From positions 68,799-132,798 of the forward strand of contig CAJINV010000007.1 in NCBI GenBank assembly GCA_905178155.1: a stretch of 64,000 nucleotides of DNA, given 5' to 3'. This document shows positions 9,788 through 47,007 of the stretch, in pieces. Numbering within the stretch: the first letter of the stretch is position 1; every line of letters starts with the position of its first letter. The position numbers and the translations under genes were made by a program. Origin of the DNA: Amoebophrya sp. A120. Its lineage: Eukaryota; Protista; Dinoflagellata. The notes under the pieces were generated by a model that saw nothing but the letters and a program-made list of their open reading frames with translations, had not been told where the DNA came from and made no database searches.

Positions 9788-11064
9788 TTATCATGTAGTG
9801 CACAACTCCCGCTCCCCCTCATCTGTAGTGCATGCATGGCAACACAAGCAATGGTAGATATGAGGCTCCCGCATGACAAATCTCCAGACCGATCGCAGTA
9901 CTGTTTGAGGCTCCGAGATTTGTCATGCGGACAGTGCTTCATCATCATCATGTAGTGGACACCCGCACCCAGCGCCACAGGTCAAGGATCCCCTCCCCGG
10001 GGGGTGGGCGAGGAAGCACTTTCGGCGACCTCCACATACAAAAGCCGAGCGCTACCACGGCAAGTCGCCCCAATAGAAGTACCAACCAGTCGGGAGCTAC
10101 CCACCACACCTGATCAGTACAGCCCGGCCANNNNNNNNNNNNNNNNNNNNNNNNNNNNNNNNNNNNNNNNNNNNNNNNNNNNNNNNNNNNNNNNNNNNNN
10201 NNNNNNNNNNNNNNNNNNNNNNNNNNNNNNCATACAGAACGATCCAGGACCCGACCCATTTTACGCCATAAGTTTTTGTTCTCACGGAAGAGACGACGCA
10301 CCCCTTTGGGCTAAGGGGCGTCGCATGTGAGACAACGCAAAATGAGAAATGTCGGAACTGCTCTAAGACCATATTCCCCCTGGAGCCCAAGCTTCGACAT
10401 TGGTCGCGATGCAAAAACCCTCCCGACAAATAGCCCTGCAAGGTGTACAAACCTAGGACTCCAGTGTCAAGCAGGTGGAGTGTAACTCTGTTTGTTTCCG
10501 CTAGCAGCCCGCATACAGACATTCATAAATAAAGCTGTTTCAGATGTAGATTTGGATGCACTAAAAGCACAAGAAAAATATAGTCCCTGATCATTCCGCC
10601 CCCAAAGCCGCCCCCACGCGCTTGGTCAGCAATATGTATCCACGCCACGAAGAGAAAGCACGCCTCGATCTTTACATGGGTCTTGACCAAAAAGAGCACG
10701 CCTCCACGACGGCGAAGCGGCTATCGGCGACTTTGAACAGGAAGCACGTGGCGGAGCCCCTGGGTAGCCGCGGTTTGGCCTTGTCCGATACGCTATAATT
10801 AGCGGAGTCATACGACTCAAGTACACGATCACTGGAGGAGCCTCTGCGGTGCGACGGCAGCGTGTACTTCAGACCGTTGATTCACTGGCAGCAGGGGGAG
10901 AAACCCCTGCTGTTACATCTTGTCTCCTTCCTTCTCATCCAATCTAGGTCGCAGCCGTCTGCACCCGGCTGCCTAAAACTTACTCTCAAGGGGCCCAGTG
11001 CAGTGGGCCCCGCTCTCGACGGTTTCTACTAATTTAGGCTCGCCTTGAGCCAAAATGGCTACGG
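9788..11064 (-). mobile_element. Spliced-leader-capped retro-insertion (contains 100-N gap)
   Basis: Begins with DinoSL; flanked by a 35-bp direct repeat at 9753-9787 and 11063-11097 (the second overlaps the SL by 2 nt); (TGA)n-like tail near 9940-9952 on the - strand. Confidence 0.7.
11044..11064 (-). other. Dinoflagellate spliced-leader (DinoSL) sequence, genomic relic
   Basis: Reverse complement reads CCGTAGCCATTTTGGCTCAAG, identical to the conserved 21 nt of DinoSL. Confidence 0.95.
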
Positions 11065-12149
11065 CTGGTGTCGTGGGGTGTTACACCTCCAGTGGAAAAA
11101 TTATGGTAGAAGCAGTAAATTTTGGTTGGTTCTAGATCTTAGAGGCAGAGACGGAAGAACATGAAGTAACAACGCAACGGAGAGAGGGAGGGGGGACAAC
11201 ACTTCTGCCTGTAACGTCCAAAGAAATCGAACCACGCTGCTTTGGGAAAAGTAGCCCTAAGTGGCAAGAAGAACTTTGGCGCTCGCTTAAAACGGTGATC
11301 CCAGTGTACATGGCGGTTACAGGCGCCGGCTCCACCATCCATGCACTCACCGCTTTAACGTGTTGGAAGGAAAAGAGTCGGAGGAAGAAATCAAAACCAC
11401 AACACGCACACAAACCGGGATCAAGAAAATTAGATCGCGTGGACCGATGATAACCGAAGGCAAAATACGAAGACCCGATCGAACAATGACGATACGCTAC
11501 GACCCGTACGAGCTTCGAGTTAATGCGAACTTACGATAGGTCTTAGATTACGTAAACGACAAATATCCAAGTACGAGCGAGGTATACAGGAAAGTGTGCG
11601 ACGTAGACGAACTGAAAATCAAAGGTCAAGAACGGACGAGACGATATCATGTACGAGCGCGGCGATGGAAATGCACAGGGGAGATATAGGCCTATAGTCA
11701 AGTACCGATGGATCGCAATTGTGATCTTCACGCACACTCAACAACGCACACAAACATCGAGCGAAAAGAAGCGAGAGTCGGTGTCGATGAGAAGTTGTTG
11801 CCCTGTCGAAGTGCTTTACTTTTGTTTTTTTCATTTGATGCATCGATAAGAGGGGAAGGAAAAACTGTACCTAGGTGCCATTACAGCAAATAACCCATTC
11901 ATTCGCATTTTATGCTTTTTTTTTATCATTCAAATACAAGTCAATGAACATTCATCAGTGCATCATCACAATAGAAGAAAATGATATACTGTGTCCGGGA
12001 TTTCATCGTGTTAATTGGAGTGTGATTTTTGGGTCATATAAAAGTAAGGTTTGAATATCGCAGTGTCCGCTCTGCTGATTACGACGGACCTGGTGACGGT
12101 GGATCCTTTTGGAACTTGTCTGCTTCCTTGACCGATCATCATTTGGCTG

Positions 12150-12929
12150 CTAGACGAAAGGCGTTTGGTCCACACCTTCCCGTTAATTCGCTGCAGCGTC
12201 TGTCTGTTCCTTTCTTCTTGTTCTTCCCGCTGCTGGTCTAGTCTTCGTCGTCTTTCTTCTTCCATCGCTGTCCGCTTTTTGCTTTTTGGTGCGCCCGCCT
12301 TTGCACCTTTTTGCTTTTTCTGTGTTTTTACGCGCTTGGCACTGTCTATCGTGGCCCGGATTGCGATGCCCGTCGGCTTTGTTTCTTTGATTACTTCCAG
12401 TGGTATTGCGTAGTAGTTCAGGTCCTCTTGCGCTTGTCTCCCCCACGGGGTGTTTTGCTTGATCTCCGCCTCGATGCGCGCAAAAGACCCTTCTTTTTCG
12501 TCGCCCCGGCAGGCATGGGCGATCCACGCGACCCTTTTCGCGCGGGCCTCGTCCTCGATAGGCTGCACCCCGAGCTCCTGACAGAGCTCGAGCCTGCTCT
12601 TCCCTTCGTTGCGGTAATGGCCCCCGAGGATTTCGCGAAGAGCTGAGTCCTGGAACCGCCGCAGGGCGGCGTCCTGCGCTGTCGTGGTGACCCACGTCTC
12701 CGCGTTGTACAACGCTACACTCAAGCTCAGCGCCCGATAGAGGTCGGACTTGAGCCTTGTCGGTAGTGTGGCGTCTCGCCACACTGGGGCTAGTTGCTTT
12801 ACGACCCCGGCGGCGATTGCGCACCGCCGTGTCGTTTCTCCTTCTGTGCTGCCGTCTCGACGAAATGGGACGAGGTTCTTTCGGTATTCATACTGCACTT
12901 CTCCTAAGACGAACAATTCTAACAGGTGC
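12150..12929 (-). mobile_element. Non-LTR (RTE-like) retrotransposon fragment, region C-terminal to RT
   Basis: LAPVWRDATLPTRLKSDLYRALSLSVALYNAETW...RRFQDSALREILG...RVAWIAHACR matches the RTE-clade YGxETW / RWxGHxxR region; no RT catalytic core. Confidence 0.8.
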
Positions 12930-12969
12930 ACTTGTCTGCTTCCTTGACCGATCATCATTTGGCTGACAA

Positions 12970-14681
12970 TTGAGGTGTGCTCGTACGGTGGCACCGTGTT
13001 CAGGATCCCCGGACCGAGTTCCCGCGTGACAGGCCAGCAAATAAACGACTTCTCGCCGTCCGTGCGCCACATCTTGATCGGTCCGTAGCGTCTGTACCAC
13101 ATGCGGATTGCTGCGATCACGACATTGGCGTGCCGGGTCTTCGCCGCAAAACCAAGCTTCAACCGGGTAGCGAGGTCCAGCAAGATGAGCAGGTAGATGC
13201 AGCCCGTAATGCTGGGGGTCGTGGGCCCGACGAAGTCCGCCAGGACTTCGTCGCCGAGCTCCGTGGCAGAGCTCTCCGTCTTCCCGGTCGTCGGCTTGTG
13301 CTGGTGGTTCTTGAACATGCAAGTTTCGCAGCCCGGAAACTCGTTGGTGTGCCCGAACCTGCGGTGGTCAACTTCCTCTGCGGCGAGTTTCTCGACACCA
13401 GTGGCGAAGCTAAGCGCCGGAAGCTGCTGGCCGTGGTCGCTGGTGGTTGCTGTTGGTAGTTGTTGCTGCTGCGACGTCAGGCTGTGCGGGAGACTGGACA
13501 CGAAACAACTCTGCACATCGGGAAAGATGGGATCAAGACCGCCGGCCTGGATCGCGCACCAAACCTTGATGGTGGCGAAGCCGTTGCGCTTGTTAGCGGA
13601 ATACATCTTGTCGCCGTGTATGAAGTATCCCTCCGTGGTCCGGTCGTAGATCTTGAAACGCGAAGCCAGCACGTGCGAGCTCAACAAATTCGGTCCGTGG
13701 GGCCGAAAAACGGTGTCTACGACGTCCCGAAGCGGTTCCTCGCTGTCCAGCGCAAACTGCACCAACCCGCTGTTGTTGGTCGCGGAATTGCTGCTGTTGG
13801 TCATGCTGAGGTTCCTCTACCGGGACCAAGACCTGCGCCGGTCTTGCGTCGACGGGAACATGCTGCTGCGCGGCAGCATGCTGTTGCTGCGGAACGAACT
13901 CTTGCTGCGGCGGCATCGGAAGACGTGGTGGTGCTGGCGGTGCGAGAATTTGATGTTGTTGTTGCGGAGCAGGAGCGTGTTGTTGTGGCGGCGGGGGTGG
14001 AGGGGCAAAGTTGGCGACCTGTACGATTGGAAGCGCTGGCGGTTGAATCGCGTTTGCCGGTGCTGGAGCCGCAGGTTGTTGCTGTGGACGGCGGAAGTTC
14101 CGCCGAGCCTCCTGCAGCGCTGCCTCGAAAGCGGCATCGGCGCTGCGCATCCGTACTATCTGGCACCTGATCGCCGCGGTGGTGCGCTGAGTGTGGCCCG
14201 CCACTGTGGTGCGGATCTCCTCGAGCGCCGCATCTCCGAACGTGCCGTGCCGCCGGTAGACGCCGATCAGGTAGTCCTTGCCCAATGCCGGCGCGTGAGG
14301 TCGCGGCATCTCTGTCCCCCGCTGCGCCGCTCCCTTAAAGTCGTAAGGGGCTCATAACTTGTAGATCTGGGTAGGGATCATAATCATGGTGTTCCGCCGA
14401 ACACCGAAGGATTGGGTCGAGATGCGACCCACGCATTGTTCTTGTTCATCATTTCATTGTTGGATTGCGTGCATTCTCATATTGTACAAAGCCAAAACTA
14501 GTGCGTTTGGTGAATTCAGAGATTGAAGAGGTTCACGGAGCTGAGTACTTTGCTCAGGCTCTTGTTGCGTGCCTCTCTCATCATCATGTTATTGCTCTCA
14601 GTGTGCTGTCAGTGCGCTCATGGTCCTCATCTTCTCATTCCCCAGACGACCCGACGACTGTCGAACAGTGAGGTATCTACA
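12970..14681 (-). mobile_element. Ty1/copia-like LTR retrotransposon fragment (Q/P-rich N-terminal ORF plus truncated integrase)
   Basis: HRRFGH...CETC zinc motif, ADFVGP...LILLDLATR...RTDGEKSF...TVPPYEH, cut before the catalytic Glu; upstream ORF 13593-14309 is in another frame. Confidence 0.85.
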
Positions 14682-32364: not shown

Positions 32365-35300
32365 TCACGCAGAGCCCGACACCCGTATCTTGTCCGGAAG
32401 CCCGGCTCGCTGTGGGATATCGCGTTCCCAAACGTTCTTACCCTCTCAACTGTTACACGAAAAATTTGTGACGTAAGAATAGCAAAAGCGAAAAGGGAGA
32501 GCTTGTTGAACCTGTCGCGTTACAAATTGGGCACAGATTCGCTATGAGCCTGTTTAGCAATTCGAGGATTTGCCAGGCGAAGCATGTACCTCGACCGTGC
32601 GTGTGGCAGCTGAAAGTAATTTTGCATGACAAACAAGGCCCACGCGTGGGAGCAGGGTCCCCACGCTGGGGCCTTGTGTGCGCCCCTAGTGGCGCGAGTG
32701 GGAGAAGGGTGTTCGGCATCAGGGCGGACAGTGTCCCCCCTCGGCCTCGGCCTCGCCTCACATCAGGAGGCGCGCGCATAGCGACTTAGTGCGAGAAGCG
32801 CGACTCCCGGGGGCAGGCTGTTCGGCAGCGGGGCGGACGATTCGAAACCGCCCCTGGAAAAGAAATCCGGCCCCAAAGTTGCTTGTGCGCAACACAGATC
32901 GGAGATTTCTTTCCCCGGGCGGTATGGACTTTCCACGCCGCGTCCTGCGGGAGCCAAAGCGAGGGCGTAGAAAGTCCATACCGCTCGTGAAAAAGAAATC
33001 CGGCCCCAAAGTTGCTTTTGCGTAACACAGCTCGGCGATTTCTTTCCCCGGGCGGTATGGACTTTCTACGCCCCGTCCTGCGGGAGCCAAGACGAGGGCG
33101 TAGAAAGTCCATATCGCCCGTGAAAAAGAAATCCGGCCCCAAAGTTGCTTTTGCGCAACACAGATCGGAGATTTCTTTCCCCGGACGGTATGGACTTTCT
33201 ACGCCGCGTCCTGCGGGAGCCAAGGCGAGGGCGTAGAAATTCCATACGTGGAAAAGAAATCCCGTCCCCAAGTTGCTTTCGCGCATACACAGATTGGAGA
33301 TATCTTTCCCCGGGCGGTATGGACTTTCTACGCCGCGTCCTGCGGGAGCCAAGGCGAGGGCGTAGAAATTCCATACCGCCCGTGGAAAAGAAATCCGGTC
33401 CCAAAGTTGCTTTTGCGCAACACAGATCGGAGATTTCTTTCTCCGGGCGGCATGGACTTTCTATGCCGCGTCCTGCGGGAGCCAAGACGAGGGCTGTTTA
33501 GCACTTCGAGGATTTGCCACGCGAAGCACGTCGACCGTGTGGCAGCTGCTAGCTGCAATTTTGCATGACAAATCATGTAACAGCTGAGAAAGCAATCGAT
33601 TTGAGAAACCCATACGGGAACAGCTTCTCGTACAGAAACACCCGCTATGGAAATGCACAACTTCCCCTCCTCCCCGTCATTTGTGGTCATGGCAAATCCC
33701 AAAAATTAATGCACACTGATGTGCCTCTTCCTCTTGGCACTGTTTGCATGAGCATGCCAAGTTCTAGCTGCAACCCAAATGAAACTTCTACACTGCTGTG
33801 CAAATTTCTGATGCAAAACCAGCAGGCTTGCTGCCGCTTGAATTGCCGTTGCGTTCATGGTATACAAATCAATGAGGGGGAGCGGGACGAGTTATGCAGT
33901 CGGATACCAGCGCTTCCTCACTTGCGAGAATGCCTTCGATGTTCGGCGGGTACCTTTATTTCTTTCGAGGATTTTTTGTCATGCGACAATCCCATTCACA
34001 ACAAGTGCGGAGCAGGTACTATGATGCAAGTGAGCACTTCTTGTTATGCAATGATAAAGCAGTTTTCATACAGAACCAGAAGTAACAGTATAGTACCTTC
34101 CTTTCCCCAACTGCTTTCGCGATTCGTCGATGCACTGGAGGAAAAATTCTTCCAATATCGCGGGAAAAAACTGCTTCGTTGTCGTGAACTTGTGATGCAG
34201 GAAATGAAGCGCTATAGTGTTTGTCTTGCTACTACACCTGCGAAGACATTAGATTTTCAACCGTGTAGCTTTCCCTTGGGAAGTGCGCATGGCAAATTCC
34301 CTGCGTCACGTGTCGCGAACTTGTGACGCAGATCTTGCAAAATCATCACAGTGAGACAGTTTTTTCGTGGGATATCCAAGCCTGACTTTCTACTAAAATG
34401 GTCGGCTATGAACTGCAAAAGTATCGTACTCGTATATATGCATTACAAATTTCCTCAGCATGACACAAAAAATTTGTAATGCTGATCTACCTTTGAGAAA
34501 AAGATTTGTAATGCATGATCGCAATACGAGTACGATGCTTTTGCAGTGCATATCGGCCCGCTGACTCCTCAGACTCCTTGCTTTCGCCTGCTCTTCTCGC
34601 AGGCATTATGGTGTTCTCAAGCGTTACGCTCTCAACTGCCTATTTTACGATGAATTTGTGACGCAAGAACAGCAACAGTGAAATCGGCAAGCTTGCAACT
34701 TTCGCATCACAAATTTGGCACAGATCAAGATGCTAGTAGGTACTTAGCCCTATTCAATAATCTGTCATGCGAAGTAGTTTGGTCCTCTGGCGGCCTTCTT
34801 GTGGTAATCGTAATTTTCCATGACAACAAATCATGTCACAGCTGAGAATGCAACTGATTTGAGAATCCGATAGACACTCCTGCAGTCTTCTAATCGCGTC
34901 CACATACGTATCCCGAGACAAAAAACTGTCTCACTAGTCTCAAACCGCACTAGTATTTGCACGACACTCAGCAACACAAATTCTTCGACCAGCATGAGCA
35001 TATCTACTACTCAAGGACACTGTCCGCATAAGAAATTACAAGAGGAGTGACTGAAACAGCTTTTTGCGTTTCCATCGATAATAGGCGATTTTTTCCAAGT
35101 CCGAGGGGTTTGACTCGTTGTTGGCCGTAGTTTCGTGTATGGCAAGCTGTTTGTTCTTCTCGTCTTGCTTGGATTGCAGGGCGACCTTGTTGTTCGGATT
35201 TAAGTGTTGTTCAATCATCGAATTTGTTTATTCTACATCAGTGCTGTTCTGTTTCTTCTCGGAACTTGATTTAGTTTTCTCGTCGTCCGTCGTGTCTTAT

Positions 35301-39293: not shown

Positions 39294-40929
39294 GAGCGGG
39301 GTAACTAATTCTGACGAGTTGTGGCCGTCCCACTTCTCACCCGCCCGGCCGGGTGGGTGACTAGTGGGACGAAACCAGGATCCTGACCAGCTGGACCTCC
39401 CCCCCTTGTTCGATTTGCGCCACCAAGACCCGAACTACGGGGGGGGCCTCCCCCCCTTGTTCGGTTCGCGCCGTGAAGATCCCAACCCGGGGGGGGCCTC
39501 CCCCCCTTGATCGGTTTGCGCCATCAAGATCCGAACAGGGGGGGGCCTCCCCCCCCTTGTTCGGTTTGCACCACCAAGATCCGAACAGGGGGTGGACCTC
39601 CCCCCCTTGTTCGGTTTGCGCCGTCAAGATCCCAACCCGGGGGGGGGGGCCTCCCCCCTTGTTCGGTTTGGGCCGTCAAGATCCCAACCCGGGGGGGGGC
39701 CTCCCCCCCTTGTTCGGTTTGCGCCATCAAGATCCGAACAGGGGGGGGGGCCTCCCCCCCTTGTTCGGTTTGCGCCATCCAGATCCGAACAAGGGGGGAC
39801 CTCTCCCCCTTGTCCGATTTGCGCCACCAAAATCCGAACCAGGGGGGGCCCCCCCTTGTTCGGTTTGCGCCACCAAGATCCGAGCGGGGGAGGGGCCTCC
39901 CTCCTCCCCTTGTTCGGCTTGCGCCGTCAAGATCCGAACAGGGGGGGGACCTCCCCCCCTTGTTCGTTTTGCGCCATCAAGATCCGAACAAGGGGGGCCC
40001 CCCCCCTTGTTTCGATTTGCGCCACCAAGATCCGAACAAGGGGGGACCCCCCCCCTTGTTCGATTTGTGCCACCAAGATCCGAACTAGGGGGGGGCCCCC
40101 CCTTGTTCGGTTTGCGCCGCCCAGATCCATCCCAACCCGGGGACGGCCTCCCCCCCTTGTTCGGTTTGCGCCATCAAGATCCGAACAGGGGGGGGGGGCC
40201 TCCCCCCCTTGTTCGGTTTGCGCCATCAAGATCCGAACAAGGGGGGGGGGCCTCTCCCCCTTGTCCGATTTGCGCCACCAAGATCCGAACTAGGCCCGCC
40301 CCCCTTGTTCGGGTTGCGCCAGGGGGGGACCCTCCCCCCTTGTTCGATTTGCGCCACCAAGATCCGAACTAGGGGGCCCCCCCCTTGTTCGGTTTGCGCC
40401 TTCAAGATCCCAACCCGGGGGGCCCCCCCCCTTGTTCGATTTGCGCCACCAAGACCCGAACTAGGGGGGGGCCTCACCCCCTTGTTCGGTTTGCGCCATC
40501 AAGATCCCAACCCGGGGGGGGCCTCCCCCCTTGCTCGGTTTGCGCCATCAAGATCCGAACAGGGGGGGGCCTCCCCTCGTTGTTCGGTTTGCGCCGTCAA
40601 GATCCCAACCCCGGAGGGGCCTCGCTCCCCCCCTTGTTCGGTTTGCGCCACCAAGACCCGAACTAGGGGGGGTCTCCCCCCCTTGTTCGATTTGCGCCGT
40701 CAAGATCCCAGCCCGGGGGGGCCTCCCCCCGTTGTTCGGTATGCGCCACCAAGACCCGAACAAGGGGGGCCCCCCCCCTTGTTCGGTTTGCGCCATCAAG
40801 ATCCCAACCCGGGGGGGCCAAGATCCGGCCAGCTGGTCAGGATCCTGGTTTCGTCCCACTAGTCACCCACCCGGCCGGGCGGGTGAGAAGTGGGACGGCC
40901 ACAACTCGTCAGAATTTGTTACCCCGCTC
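39294..40929. mobile_element. Non-autonomous DNA transposon, PIF/Harbinger-like
   Basis: ~101-bp near-perfect TIRs (39294-39394, 40829-40929) starting GAGCGGGGTAAC; TTA on both flanks; no coding capacity. Confidence 0.85.
39396..40820. repeat. ~41-43-bp palindromic tandem repeat, roughly 34 copies
   Basis: Consensus CCCCCCTTGTTCGGTTTGCGCCAYCAAGATCCGAACAAGGGGGG; no unique spacers. Confidence 0.95.
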
Positions 40930-42489: not shown

Positions 42490-45400
42490 TCATATGTGAA
42501 TGCTACCGTGCTCCTGCCGCCCATGGGTGGAACTTCCGCCATGCATGTTCTCCTGGTAGATCTCCCTAGTGACGGTGGTGTCGTACAGCCCGTGATGGTA
42601 CTCCCCGCGCTTGGTGTCTCCGCCAGGGTGCGCCGCGGCAGAGGTGCCGCTGCTCCCGCCGCCGCCGAAAAAGGTCGTGAAGGCGTTCGTTTTTGCCGCG
42701 TTCGCGAATTGCGTCGTTTGCTGGTGGTTTTCACGATCCATATAATCCTGGTCGAAGCTAATTGTGGCCGATTCGTCCAAGTCTCCCACTTTCCCCAACT
42801 GTTTCAACGATTCGATCTTCCCGTCCACCAGTGCGTTTTCGTTCTGCAGCGTCTCGATGCTGAATATGACCTACTCAAACGTTACAATCTCAAGCGTTAC
42901 AATAGAATCTGAGATTTGTCTTGCATGATTTTTTTTTTTTTTTTTGCCAGGGCTGGGGGGCAGACTCGAGGACAGTGGTCCTCTCCGCCATGGGCTACCA
43001 CACGATGCACATGCAAAAACTTATTGCCCCAGCCGGATCCGATGCGATCCACAACATATAAAAACACAACCGACATCATATAAAACAGCATATAAATCTT
43101 CAGAGTTCCGGATCTTCGTCGAGTTGTGCGTAGACCGCAGAGCGGACCTACGCAGAATATACCTTTCCCCGTCCACAGCCCTTGCTTTCTATCTTGCAGT
43201 ATGCAGTTTCCAAAAAAAGTAATAGATTTCTTCGCCAGTTTGTTGTTGGTTTAATAATATATTGATATTCTATTTACATTTTTCTCAGCTCTTACTTTTC
43301 AAATTTGTTTACAAATCATATCCAGATCATCTGCTTCTGGGAGCTGACGTAATTGAAAAGTAAGAGCTCCGCATGAAAGAACTGCAAACGTGAATATCAG
43401 CTTTTTCTCTTGAGCCCCCAACAAACTGCTTTACTCTATTACTTGCATTGCGTATTAAATTTTCCTTTCCTCCTGGATAACCGTATTCCACCGTCAGGTC
43501 GACCGTGCGCATGACTAAGACTAACAAGGATACTCAGCTTACATCTACTTATCTTTACTACAAGAAAAGAACTTACTGCAATTTTTATTGCTGTACCTCG
43601 CCTCCTTCTAATTAAGCTTCTTACTTTTTCTCGTTCCAGCCGGTCCGCTAGTACGGAACCACCGCAGCCATGACATCTTTATGCGCTGATGCCGCCGGAG
43701 CCCGTGCATGGTGCCAGACATGGGAAGGACTTGCACCATACCCACGGGAACAGCAGCATCAGCGGGTGGATATCACGTCAACGCTGATCCCGCACTGTTA
43801 TGTTCTTCGTTATTCCTTCCATCAGGGTAGCTGGGACAGGAACATCGACTAGATCATGAGCGCACTTTTGCCGTAGCCCGACGTTGTTGCGCCCTGGGAT
43901 CTCGCCTGGCATTTGTCTACTTTTTCTCCCATCGACATCGTCTCACCACTTGTTGACTAATTGACGGGCAGACCAGGCGGCGGCATGTTCATGATGACGG
44001 CCTGGGAGCGATCCGGCCGGCTGCTTATCGGCAACTCGCTGCTCCTAGCTTTATAGCTGCTTGGAGAGAAAGAGCGTTCATCTCTTATTTTTTTATAATA
44101 GCATGACAAATCTATTCGCAGCAAAATGTTGCAGAATCTCCCTGCGCATTGCATCCTTGGATTTTTGCTATGAATTGCTGCATCTGCGAACACACCTAGA
44201 GAGAAAGTTTTACTTTAGGGGTGCCTCTTTATCATCATTCCACCAGCAGGCTCTACGTCGCCATCAGCATTCATCTAAATTGGTTTTTGCTGTCAGCTCC
44301 ACATCGTTCACATTTCTTTTTCGTTTAGCACCCACCAGATGTCAGCTCCATTGCCGTTCTTTTTTTTTTTATTATCTTCGTTGAAGTTATTTCATGAAAA
44401 AAAGACTAAGCTTTTCGTGATCTGACGCTGTGACTTCCCATGAATCTCCTCCTGTTTCGGTTTCCCCCACCTTGTTCTGCAGCTTGTTCTGCGCCCTCGT
44501 TTTGGTCCGCTTGTTCTTCGTCATCTTGCCCATCACGCTCAGCACCGTCTTCCCCCTCCGCCCGTTGCGCATGGACTGGCACCGCGTTGAAGAAGTTGTT
44601 GATGTCGAGCGCCAATATGTGATTATTTGCGCCGTGTCTGGGGCGTTCTTGGGGTTCTTCTTGTCCTAGCACCCGGCGGATGAGTTGCAGTATTTCCGGT
44701 CCCATCAGTCCTTGTCTTACTCCCATCGGTACTGTAACCGCAATATCATCCCCAAATTGTGCAACAGCTATCTCTTCTTGTGCTGCTTCGTCATTATTTT
44801 CTCGTGCCATTTTTTCCTTTCCTAGCACGCATGACAAATTCATAAAAAATTTCTTCAGCCCCGCTCTGGGGTTGGTCGGGGCAGGGGGTTCAGAAGGGGT
44901 CCTGTCTGTCAGTGCATATCTCCATTCCGTGCATCATGTCACAAAGAAGACATCCGGGTATACAGGTATTCTTGCTCGTAGCAGAAAGGAAACCTTGATC
45001 AAGCTTCAGAGGTAAATAAACACCGGTCAGCACAAGAAGTAAAGGGAAGATCTATGGAGCAGATCCTTTTGGCAGAGGAACTGCGGAACGGGGGGAGGCC
45101 GCAACAAAAGGGGGAAAGAAGGATCCTATATAGGCACAAAACAAAAGACAAAAAGATCACAAAATGCCTTTTCATGATGAACATGACAGACTCGGACAAA
45201 AAGATTTGTCTTGCATGATGAACATGACAGACTCGGAGAGCATTCCACTTTCTGCAATACAAATTTCGCCAGATTGTAGTGCGGATTGGGACTCCAGAAC
45301 TTGTCATGCGCAATACTATGAGAGGTGGCTAGATCATGCCCTTTTGCATCACAGATTTCCATATTCTATTGTAACGTTTGAGATTGTAACACCTGAGCGG

Positions 45401-47007
45401 GTTATACTGAATCCCTTCAGTTTCGACTTCATGGAGCGCTCGAGGAGTATGAGACTACACAACTCCCTCTCCCCCTCATTTGTAATGCAAAATACCAAAT
45501 CCACCCTTTGCCCCTTGGCACTTTTTGCATGACAAATTCTGGAACCTCAAACAGCACTACAATCTTCCTGGGCGAAGTTGTCATGCAAGACCTGCATTGT
45601 TGCCGACGCTTGTATTGCTGTTTATGCCCGACAAATGAGGGGGGCAGTTGTGCACCCTCATAAGTAGAAAGACAAAGGCAAAAATCCCCGCAAAAATCAG
45701 CATACAGGATAGATGCACGTAGAACCGACTCGGGAAAACCCAGGTCAGCAGGATACTGGAGAAGAAATACAGCAAGATGGCCTATCCTGAGTAAAAGCGT
45801 CCCCATACCAGGGTAAAGATGGGAAATCTGCTAGACAAATCAGCCACCTTTGGTTGTTTCGCACGACAAGTTCATCCTCGTAGAAGTGTCATCCTGTTTA
45901 GCTAGTTCAGCAGCATCACAGGTCTATCATATCATGCTGTTTCTAGCATCACAAATTATCCCAAAACACGACTAGAAAAAGCCTCTCATGGGGCTTCGCA
46001 TGAGAAACTTTTTTGGCATGCAGATTTGCATGACAACTCTGGGGTGGGGATGTTTTTACTTAGAATATCGCCAGCTTAAACATCAAGTAGACGGACTCTT
46101 GCTCTTTCTTCAAAAAGTCCACTGCCCGGTGAAAGCTGGCAATTCCGTCGGGACCCCGCAGCGCCAGTCCCGGGCCCCACATCGCGAGAAAGACCGTGCA
46201 GTATTGTCTGAAATTTATCAACCATGATGTGATCCCCATTCCCTTTTTGCATGACAAACACAGAATCATTTACATTTTCGTACATGTTTATTTGCATGAC
46301 AAATTGGATGGGGCGGAAGATGGTGACTTTATTTGAGGGAATACCCATGTCACGGTGCACACGGAAGCGCCAAAGGCGCCGGACGTGAGCGAGAGGTATG
46401 CAATACAAATTTCCCGTACATGTACAAGATGCATCACAAATTTCGCCAATTTGAAGCGTAAAACTTGTCATGCTAGACTAGGATCGAAGCCAATTTTTGT
46501 CATGCAGAGACCGCATGTGTACGTGTACGGGAAATTGCCTGTGGATAAGAGGTAAACCGAAGACACGAGGTAGGAGGTTTCGTAGGGTATCGGTGTCGTC
46601 AGTTGGTTGAAAAGGTATCAAATGCAAAAATGTCTGGGTCTGGAAACTTGTGATGCTGGTTGAGAAAAACGAGAAAACCTCAATCGACTGCCAAGCATGA
46701 CAAGTTTTGGAGTTGCTACAGTCTTGTCTATTCTGCATGGCAAACTGGGCGTCTACATGAGAGAAAAGTGGGGGGTTTGGGTCACGCGCATTACAGACTT
46801 AGGAGTCATGCCAGCCAAGCATGACAAACCTTTCATCTTTCCAGACCCAGACATATTTGCAATGCATAAGAGGAACCCACCGACAATGGTCGACGCGCCG
46901 CACCAGAGCCAATAATTCGCGACGTAGTAATCTAGTTCCAACTGCCGCAGTTCGGCTTGGCGGATTGACACATCCGCCACGACCTCGTTCTTGTAGGCTT
47001 GAAGCAT
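42490..47007 (-). CDS. Four-TM membrane protein, Orai/CRAC-channel-like fold suspected
   Basis: MLQAYKNEVVADVSIRQAELRQLELDYYVANYWLWCGASTIVGGFL-FNQLTTP...VSSVYL-SLTSGAFGASVCTVTW-xVFLAMWGPGLALRGPDGIASFHRAVDFLKKEQESVYLMFKLAI-LLYFFSSILLTWV...IFAFVFLL-ERSMKSKLKGFS-IETLQNEN...; four hydrophobic segments. The family assignment is inference. Confidence 0.7.
42929..45201 (-). mobile_element. Poly(A)-tailed retro-insertion
   Basis: T17 at 42929-42945; duplication AGATTTGTCTTGCATGA at 42912-42928 and 45202-45218. Confidence 0.75.
44406..44810 (-). CDS. Short ORF (134 aa) with reverse-transcriptase-like motifs in reversed order
   Basis: AVAQFGDDIAV, then MGVRQGLMGPEIL, then HILALDINNFFNAV. Confidence 0.45.
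   Translation of the reverse strand: MARENNDEAAQEEIAVAQFGDDIAVTVPMGVRQGLMGPEILQLIRRVLGQEEPQERPRHGANNHILALDINNFFNAVPVHAQRAEGEDGAERDGQDDEEQADQNEGAEQAAEQGGGNRNRRRFMGSHSVRSRKA
45448..45662. mobile_element. Introner family E
   Basis: TIR; DR AGGAG/AGTAG. Confidence 0.82.
45783..46067. mobile_element. Introner family D
   Basis: TIR; DR TGGCC/TCGCC; reverse orientation of 35732-36025. Confidence 0.85.
46202..46343. mobile_element. Degenerate introner
   Basis: TATT...AATA weak TIR, two GCATGACAA motifs, DR lost; needed to join two TM exons. Confidence 0.5.
46397..46547. mobile_element. Introner (AATTTCCCGTACA type)
   Basis: TIR; DR AGAGG. Confidence 0.88.
46616..46868. mobile_element. Introner family B
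   Basis: TIR; DR AAAGG/AGAGG. Confidence 0.88.

Follow-up and report, generated by a model that had tools for sequence, protein, structure and literature searches.

Reverse transcriptases (RTs) of the RVT_1 family carry their palm motifs in the order A-B-C, separated by about 55 and 45 residues. In the 64-kb stretch of Amoebophrya DNA that was analysed as a whole (the window), a poly(A) retro-insertion contains an open reading frame (ORF) in which blocks resembling these motifs stand in the order C-B-A. This raises the question of whether the blocks descend from an RT at all, and whether the encoded protein is an enzyme, a protein kept for another task, mere debris or an unrelated product with a fortuitous likeness.

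The Poly(A) Retro-Insertion and Its Host

An earlier, sequence-only reading of the locus had placed the blocks inside a poly(A) retro-insertion, and this insertion is real: it features a T17 run, an 18-nt direct repeat and an empty-site relative, the host element being identical at 221 of 252 positions to an empty relative at 866-1117 (Table 1). Seven A/T runs of at least 10 nt occur in the window, and a target duplication accompanies this one only. The insert, which makes up 3.6% of the window, has neither LTRs nor terminal inverted repeats of its own, the longest self-match being internal and 16 nt long. Its 3' poly(A), target duplication and lack of terminal repeats are those of a non-LTR insertion of the target-primed reverse transcription type. 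As the longest open frame comprises 175 aa, the full RT domain and the endonuclease ORF of an autonomous LINE are absent; a SINE-type head was likewise not found in the insert (no Rfam match at E 1, no tRNA), and the presence of an ORF sets it apart from SINEs. A six-frame scan of the insert for another RT piece gave nothing above 0.6 bits, and no endonuclease piece was found in it. The 3' terminal region folds as RNA with a z of -1.96, 8 of 200 shuffles being equally good. An assembly artefact is ruled out, since a contig from a second study equals 42955-44907 with 0 differences; the stretch is present in 8 of the 11 listed sequencing runs from two studies, with contig matches at 0-1 differences.

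The insert resides in a short element with terminal inverted repeats (TIRs). The host frame reads open across the junction once this TIR element and one TTCAG repeat are left out, and because the omission gives 159 open codons of the host gene, the TIR element looks like an introner. It shares with introners the inverted repeats, the short direct repeat, the membership of a repeated family and the restoration of the frame on removal, and many short TIR elements lie elsewhere in the window. Repeated introns with inverted repeats and 3-5 nt direct repeats are known from Amoebophrya genomes (PMC7789003, PMC12130899).

Table 1. Coordinates of the retro-insertion, its ORF and the surrounding host features within the window.
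Feature	Position	Strand	Remarks
Downstream exon of host gene	42490..42864	-	159 open codons to natural stop
Host TIR element, introner-like	42865..45406		252 bp without insert; 47-nt arms complementary at 39/47; TTCAG 5-nt direct repeat at ends
Target-site duplication, 3' copy	42912..42929		18 nt
Poly(A) tail, T17	42929..42945	-	17 nt
Poly(A) retro-insertion, copy 1 of the non-autonomous element	42930..45201	-	2,272 bp
3' terminal region, common to copy 2 and further loci	42946..43190	-	putative RT-recognition tail
Variable middle	43191..44173	-	unaligned in copy 2; contains RPDGGIRL
134-aa ORF	44406..44810	-	acidic, pI 4.8; codon pattern gene-like; collinear in copy 2
Motif A-like block	44574..44621	-	residues 64-79, Asp69
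Motif B-like block	44667..44732	-	residues 27-48, GVRQG and predicted helix
Motif C-like block	44733..44771	-	residues 14-26, Asp21-Asp22; low-confidence predicted beta-hairpin
Pyrimidine-rich 5' leader	44811..45165	-	about 80% likeness to copy 2 in the aligned part; TGTCATGC 18 nt ahead of ATG
Exact copy of flanking target 45214-45237, at 5' junction	45173..45196		24 nt
Target-site duplication, 5' copy	45202..45219		18 nt

Some further observations concern the insert and its surroundings. The 24 nt of target sequence repeated at the 5' junction may stem from a local template jump or from target sequence brought along by the donor RNA; such a copy fits a template-jumping RT (PMC8857657). In the variable middle, one frame of about 170 codons with two stops (43440-43965, minus strand) possibly represents a decayed second ORF. 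The 8-mer TGTCATGC occurs 93 times in the 64 kb, on both strands and within many different TIR elements; it is found twice in the insert, 18-19 nt ahead of an ATG, and a variant of it lies within the target duplication. Elsewhere, an array of GC-rich repeats of about 31 nt with a short repeated flank at its bounds extends over 39300-40870, and a similar type of array lies near 32760-33560. A 5'-truncated LINE tail (12114-12965), with an exact 36-nt duplication on both sides, is situated in frame within an integrase-core ORF at 12014-13816 (minus strand), both forming an open fusion of 601 aa (rve E 2.5e-4); the tail has one homologue, a protein named Amoebophrya sp. A120 by its source, at 58% identity. 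As a parent of the 134-aa ORF this LINE fragment is not supported, being without poly(A) and having a relative (P0002) that fails to align to the ORF. Positions 11044-11058 match the dinoflagellate spliced-leader pattern exactly, with 0 mismatches, whereas 19 of 100 shuffles match it at 2 mismatches. This sequence, followed by GC (11043-11064, minus strand), is likely an SL RNA gene, with no Rfam match at the gathering score.

The ORF and Its RT-Like Blocks

The motif sites given in the sequence-only reading were correct, and the translation confirms the C-B-A order, FGDD lying at 44745-44756, GVRQG at 44709-44723 and LDINNFF at 44589-44609. The GC contents of the three codon positions (0.73/0.40/0.44) are gene-like, and a second in-frame ATG lies 33 nt upstream of the ORF start in copy 1. 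When the ORF is aligned to a group II profile, Asp69, Asp21 and Asp22 fall on the motif columns, i.e., on the three catalytic aspartates in their A and C contexts; the motif B-like block is one residue short of LINE motif B. LINEs have 55-58 residues between A and B and 42-64 between B and the DD pair; the ORF lacks both spacers, with 5 residues separating DD from the B loop.

All family matches of the ORF protein in Pfam, NCBIfam and PADLOC concern RT motif A. Against RVT_1, the whole ORF reaches 12.3 bits (E 0.14) and block A alone 13.4 bits (E 0.065), both below the Pfam gathering score of 29.6. Block A further matches a retron RT at E 0.015 and 12 PADLOC RT models at E 0.004-0.04; blocks B and C, searched singly against the families, gave no match. 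Searches for homologues of the ORF protein returned 13 candidates of similar length, none at E 1, and 55 longer ones, none at E 10, as well as none at E 0.001 among 1.84 billion protein representatives. Exact look-ups were negative and viral contigs gave no match, plasmids yielded 2 weak matches at E 5, the PDB 2 weak unrelated ones and five contaminated MAGs 2 weak, non-RT ones. The 1 locus obtained from a metagenome scan was discarded as an unrelated long ORF with one short stretch in common. Besides, LINE and CRE-like RT genes of eukaryote type were seen in many bacterial and archaeal MAG records, probably as a result of contamination. AlphaFold2, run on the single sequence, produced two models with pLDDT 49.6 and 48.2, in both of which a hairpin is predicted for C, a helix for B and no fold for A; a structure search with these low-confidence models had a best match of Z 2.5.

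A Second Copy and the Element Family

A second copy, found in the same DNA at 80% likeness and seen in two studies, resembles the first at about 85% and runs collinear with it across all three blocks. Its two arms are paired by inference, given that both reach a shared stretch over motif A, where spanning contigs assign the other pair to copy 1. Over 44174-44605 copy 2 shows 72 differences and 7 gap letters, all of the latter at 44367, 44374 and 44404 and thus outside the ORF; 28 differences and 0 gaps were counted over 44580-44822, and 36 differences and 0 gaps over 44928-45109. Past 44822, by eye, the copy stays collinear and has a variant of TGTCATGC, and the upstream ATG is absent; at the other side it joins back to 43190, skipping the variable middle. 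Two deeper runs (X2, X5) are free of indels in the ORF of copy 2, and one low-depth contig (X7, depth 5.9) has a 2-nt gap.

Between the copies, the 405-nt ORF has 0 indels and the neighbouring 232 nt have 3 (p 0.005-0.05); divergence is also lower in the ORF core than in the 5' leader (28/243 versus 36/182, Fisher p 0.02). Out of the 146 differences to copy 1, 40 were displayed, including 10 in the ORF, all within residues 79-100; 4 of these are synonymous (20% expected) and 6 are not, 2 of the latter being E to D, and an excess at third positions (6/10, p 0.08) is not significant. The 3' tail is the best-conserved part, above the ORF, with 7 differences in about 200 nt. Three more contigs in run X2 match this 3' end, one of them probably belonging to copy 2, and two contigs with a matching 3' end are 2,157 nt and 311 nt long. 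Accordingly, the collinear second copy and the further loci with the same 3' end indicate a small element family and not one-off debris. On the displayed part of the differences, the element consists of one ORF, apparently kept across two copies, with neither RT nor endonuclease. The C-B-A order, being present in both copies, is older than their split, and copy 1 was inserted after it, recently enough that the duplication remains perfect.

Profile Scores and the Question of Chance

The likeness of the blocks to RT motifs was scored with profiles made from fetched RTs of group II, APE-LINE and CRE-like types. The group II profile comprised 77 unique sequences from 121 open frames; for the APE-LINE profile, 44 of 120 loci had an open frame and 42 were kept (40 yielded a motif A and 39 a motif C); the CRE-like profile comprised 29 unique sequences from 30 loci, with 2 mis-picked C rows removed and motif A picked by a preset pattern. 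As patterns similar to block B served to retrieve the LINE and CRE sets, the B scores are biased upward.

With the group II profile, the ORF reaches a triple score of 13.6 (runner-up 0.7), ranking 1 among 538 ORF segments of the window, and 0 of 3000 shuffles attain it; with the LINE profile, it again ranks 1 of 538 with 36.4 (runner-up 11.7), attained by 0 of 2500 shuffles. Taken singly among the six-frame positions of the window, the C block ranks 1 of 84,189 with the LINE profile, the A block 1 of 79,190 with the group II and 5 of 79,190 with the LINE profile, and the B block 1 of 76,833 with the LINE profile, which was seeded with this motif, and 22 with the unseeded group II profile. Modelled p values per 134 aa are about 1e-5 for A and C together; for all three blocks they amount to 2.5e-8 (LINE profile), 4e-5 (group II) and 8e-6 (CRE), to 1.3e-6 with the seeded B columns set neutral and to 2.4e-9 for the three-class average. 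None of 392,723 simulated ORFs reached the triple score, and 4 of 509,257 Markov proteins did so with a neutralised mixed profile and no overlap rule. A null of real proteins from the fetched loci, in which 267 of 2,611 tiles scored high, says little, since these tiles themselves contain true RT motifs. For this window and insert, the C-B-A triple is well beyond chance.

The parentage of the blocks seems mixed: block A scores best in the retron/group II class (13.0 versus 8.3 bits), C and B score best in APE-type LINEs, and by these sequence scores no single parent RT class is suggested. A parent from the CRE clade was considered and is unsupported (2.5 bits for the C block, a worse triple fit of 8e-6, an F-like motif that is not the top one in the insert). 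The motif-F-like RPDGGIRL pointed out earlier is present at 43478-43501, but it is not the best F-like match within the insert and, sitting in a part absent from the copy 2 alignment, adds no support.

Weighing the Possible Explanations

The element is likely a small poly(A) retroelement family that has no RT of its own and is moved by a LINE. For the ORF, the preferred reading, tentative and held at somewhat less than an even chance, is that RT-derived blocks, probably rearranged, are kept as a helper protein of this non-autonomous retroelement and do not form a working enzyme. A rival account accepts the element and the ORF as real and takes the RT-likeness of the blocks for an accident in an unrelated, fast-evolving protein of ORF1 or orphan type, and this is doubtful though by no means negligible. 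It requires no odd rearrangement, the blocks match different RT classes and none passes a curated cut-off. Moreover, the whole scan covered about 1e8 ORFs (250,000 windows with about 500 ORFs each), so that p values of 8e-6 to 1e-6 per ORF, those of the least biased profiles, lead to 100-1000 expected chance triples, a few percent of them within such inserts if the share of the insert in this window is taken as a guide. At the strongest p, by comparison, fewer than one case is expected inside such inserts scan-wide. It also speaks against an accident that three blocks, each ranked first or nearly so among about 80,000 window positions, fall within a 65-residue stretch of a single ORF, that this ORF lies in the window's sole insert with poly(A) and target duplication, and that the Pfam, NCBIfam and PADLOC matches agree on motif A. 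The RT-likeness of the blocks and their mobile context, as put forward in the sequence-only reading, are supported; across the scan chance keeps the weight just given.

That the protein is instead a minimal palm with a non-circularly permuted C-B-A order, active as a metal-dependent nucleotidyl transferase or in catalytic partnership with an RT, seems unlikely. The protein retains the B glycines and an acidic residue at each of the three catalytic positions, both models give block C a hairpin and block B a helix, and the 15-residue linker ahead of A is, as we presume from palm topology, long enough to return the strand; an out-of-order palm as such has precedents in the C-A-B palms (10.1101/2021.03.02.433648). 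On the other hand, fingers, motif D/E and thumb are missing, FGDD replaces Y/F-A-DD, the gap of 5 residues between DD and the B loop contrasts with the spacing in LINEs, block A remains unfolded in both low-confidence models and an acidic protein is ill-suited to bind nucleic acids alone. Serial template-jump debris, another suggestion of the sequence-only reading, is unlikely as a one-off product, since a copy about 15% diverged retains motif order and frame; it may still be the origin of the arrangement. In the form of non-coding debris of an RT gene, left by template jumps or slippage and carried by the element as passive cargo, it is quite improbable: the templated duplication at the 5' junction and the middle that differs between the copies would fit, and 17% of frames this long stay open after 50 random substitutions, whereas the indel-free ORF, its lower divergence relative to the leader and its gene-like codon pattern point to a coding sequence, RNA structure (z -0.1) is no explanation for the conservation, and random debris would not gather three motifs in one frame. 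Least credible by far is a scrambled RT gene that is restored to A-B-C at the RNA or DNA level, even though splicing in Amoebophrya is unusual, U1 snRNA being undetected (PMC7789003). Reordering of the blocks, the check called for by the idea of a scrambled RT, brought no HMM gain (1.1 bits versus 2.6 in the native order); with 1.1 and 1.5 bits, the A-B-C order did not surpass any of the other five, and of about 270 scored shuffles 3 and 2 did as well. Furthermore, no other RT piece turned up in the six frames of the insert, the LINE-type spacers are missing and the contigs examined contained no back-joints, i.e., rearranged junctions; the idea is unsupported.

Returning to the reading as a retained helper protein, the following course of events may be proposed. 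A LINE RT acting in trans would recognise the conserved 3' 230 nt and copy the RNA in by target-primed reverse transcription. Owing to its seat inside an intron-like element, the insert would be spliced out of the host mRNA and hence be tolerated. The C-B-A order may have arisen once, before the copies split, when an RT gene underwent repeated template jumps or polymerase slippage. In the weakest step, the acidic mini-protein might have been retained for binding the partner RT or its RNA-protein particle, thereby favouring its own RNA. This helper role is the least certain part, drawn by analogy with proteins of the HeT-A/HAL1 type, which represent ORF1p and not RT pieces; those of HeT-A, HAL1 and Ag-Sponge are thought to multimerise with the protein of the autonomous element (PMC5786205).

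Relation to Known Systems

In the literature searched, the broader searches being judged by title or start of abstract, no report of a permuted RT or a C-B-A palm was found, nor of a retroelement gene built of reshuffled RT active-site pieces; the Palmscan preprint accepts the orders ABC and CAB alone. If the blocks are RT-derived and selected, the locus would represent a non-autonomous retroelement gene made of such pieces and not of ORF1p. A true palm fold would imply that palms can accommodate their three core elements in a non-circularly reversed order, and it would mark out a very small polymerase core; an active reversed palm would be the first permuted palm of RT type, with a topology beyond any circular permutation. 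Even a chance likeness would leave a coding retroelement family, seated within an intron-like transposon, that has apparently not been described before.

By its sequence features, the element is classed as a non-LTR retro-insertion that resembles a protein-coding non-autonomous LINE and stands outside both RVT_1 and the C-A-B permuted polymerases. Protein-coding non-autonomous LINEs are known, and HeT-A, HAL1 and Ag-Sponge share with it the poly(A), the target duplication, a single ORF, the lack of RT and endonuclease and a conserved 3' end (PMC5786205); their ORF encodes ORF1p, whereas here an acidic protein of 134 aa features RT-like blocks in reverse order. The C-A-B palms of RNA-dependent RNA polymerases from Birnaviridae and other lineages likewise combine out-of-order motifs with retained catalytic Asp residues (10.1101/2021.03.02.433648), but they result from one translocation inside a full polymerase, while here motifs of RT type stand in the order C-B-A and no other part of a polymerase is present. 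With regard to the nesting, Tx1 of Xenopus in the DNA transposon Tx1D is similarly a non-LTR element within a non-autonomous TIR element (PMC4494074); Tx1L is autonomous and target-specific, whereas the element described here is known from one target site. Finally, the host element agrees with the introners of Amoebophrya in its inverted repeats, 5-nt direct repeat, many relatives and a frame restored when it is omitted (PMC7789003, PMC12130899); it differs from them by holding a 2.3-kb retro-insert, its introner status being read from the DNA itself.
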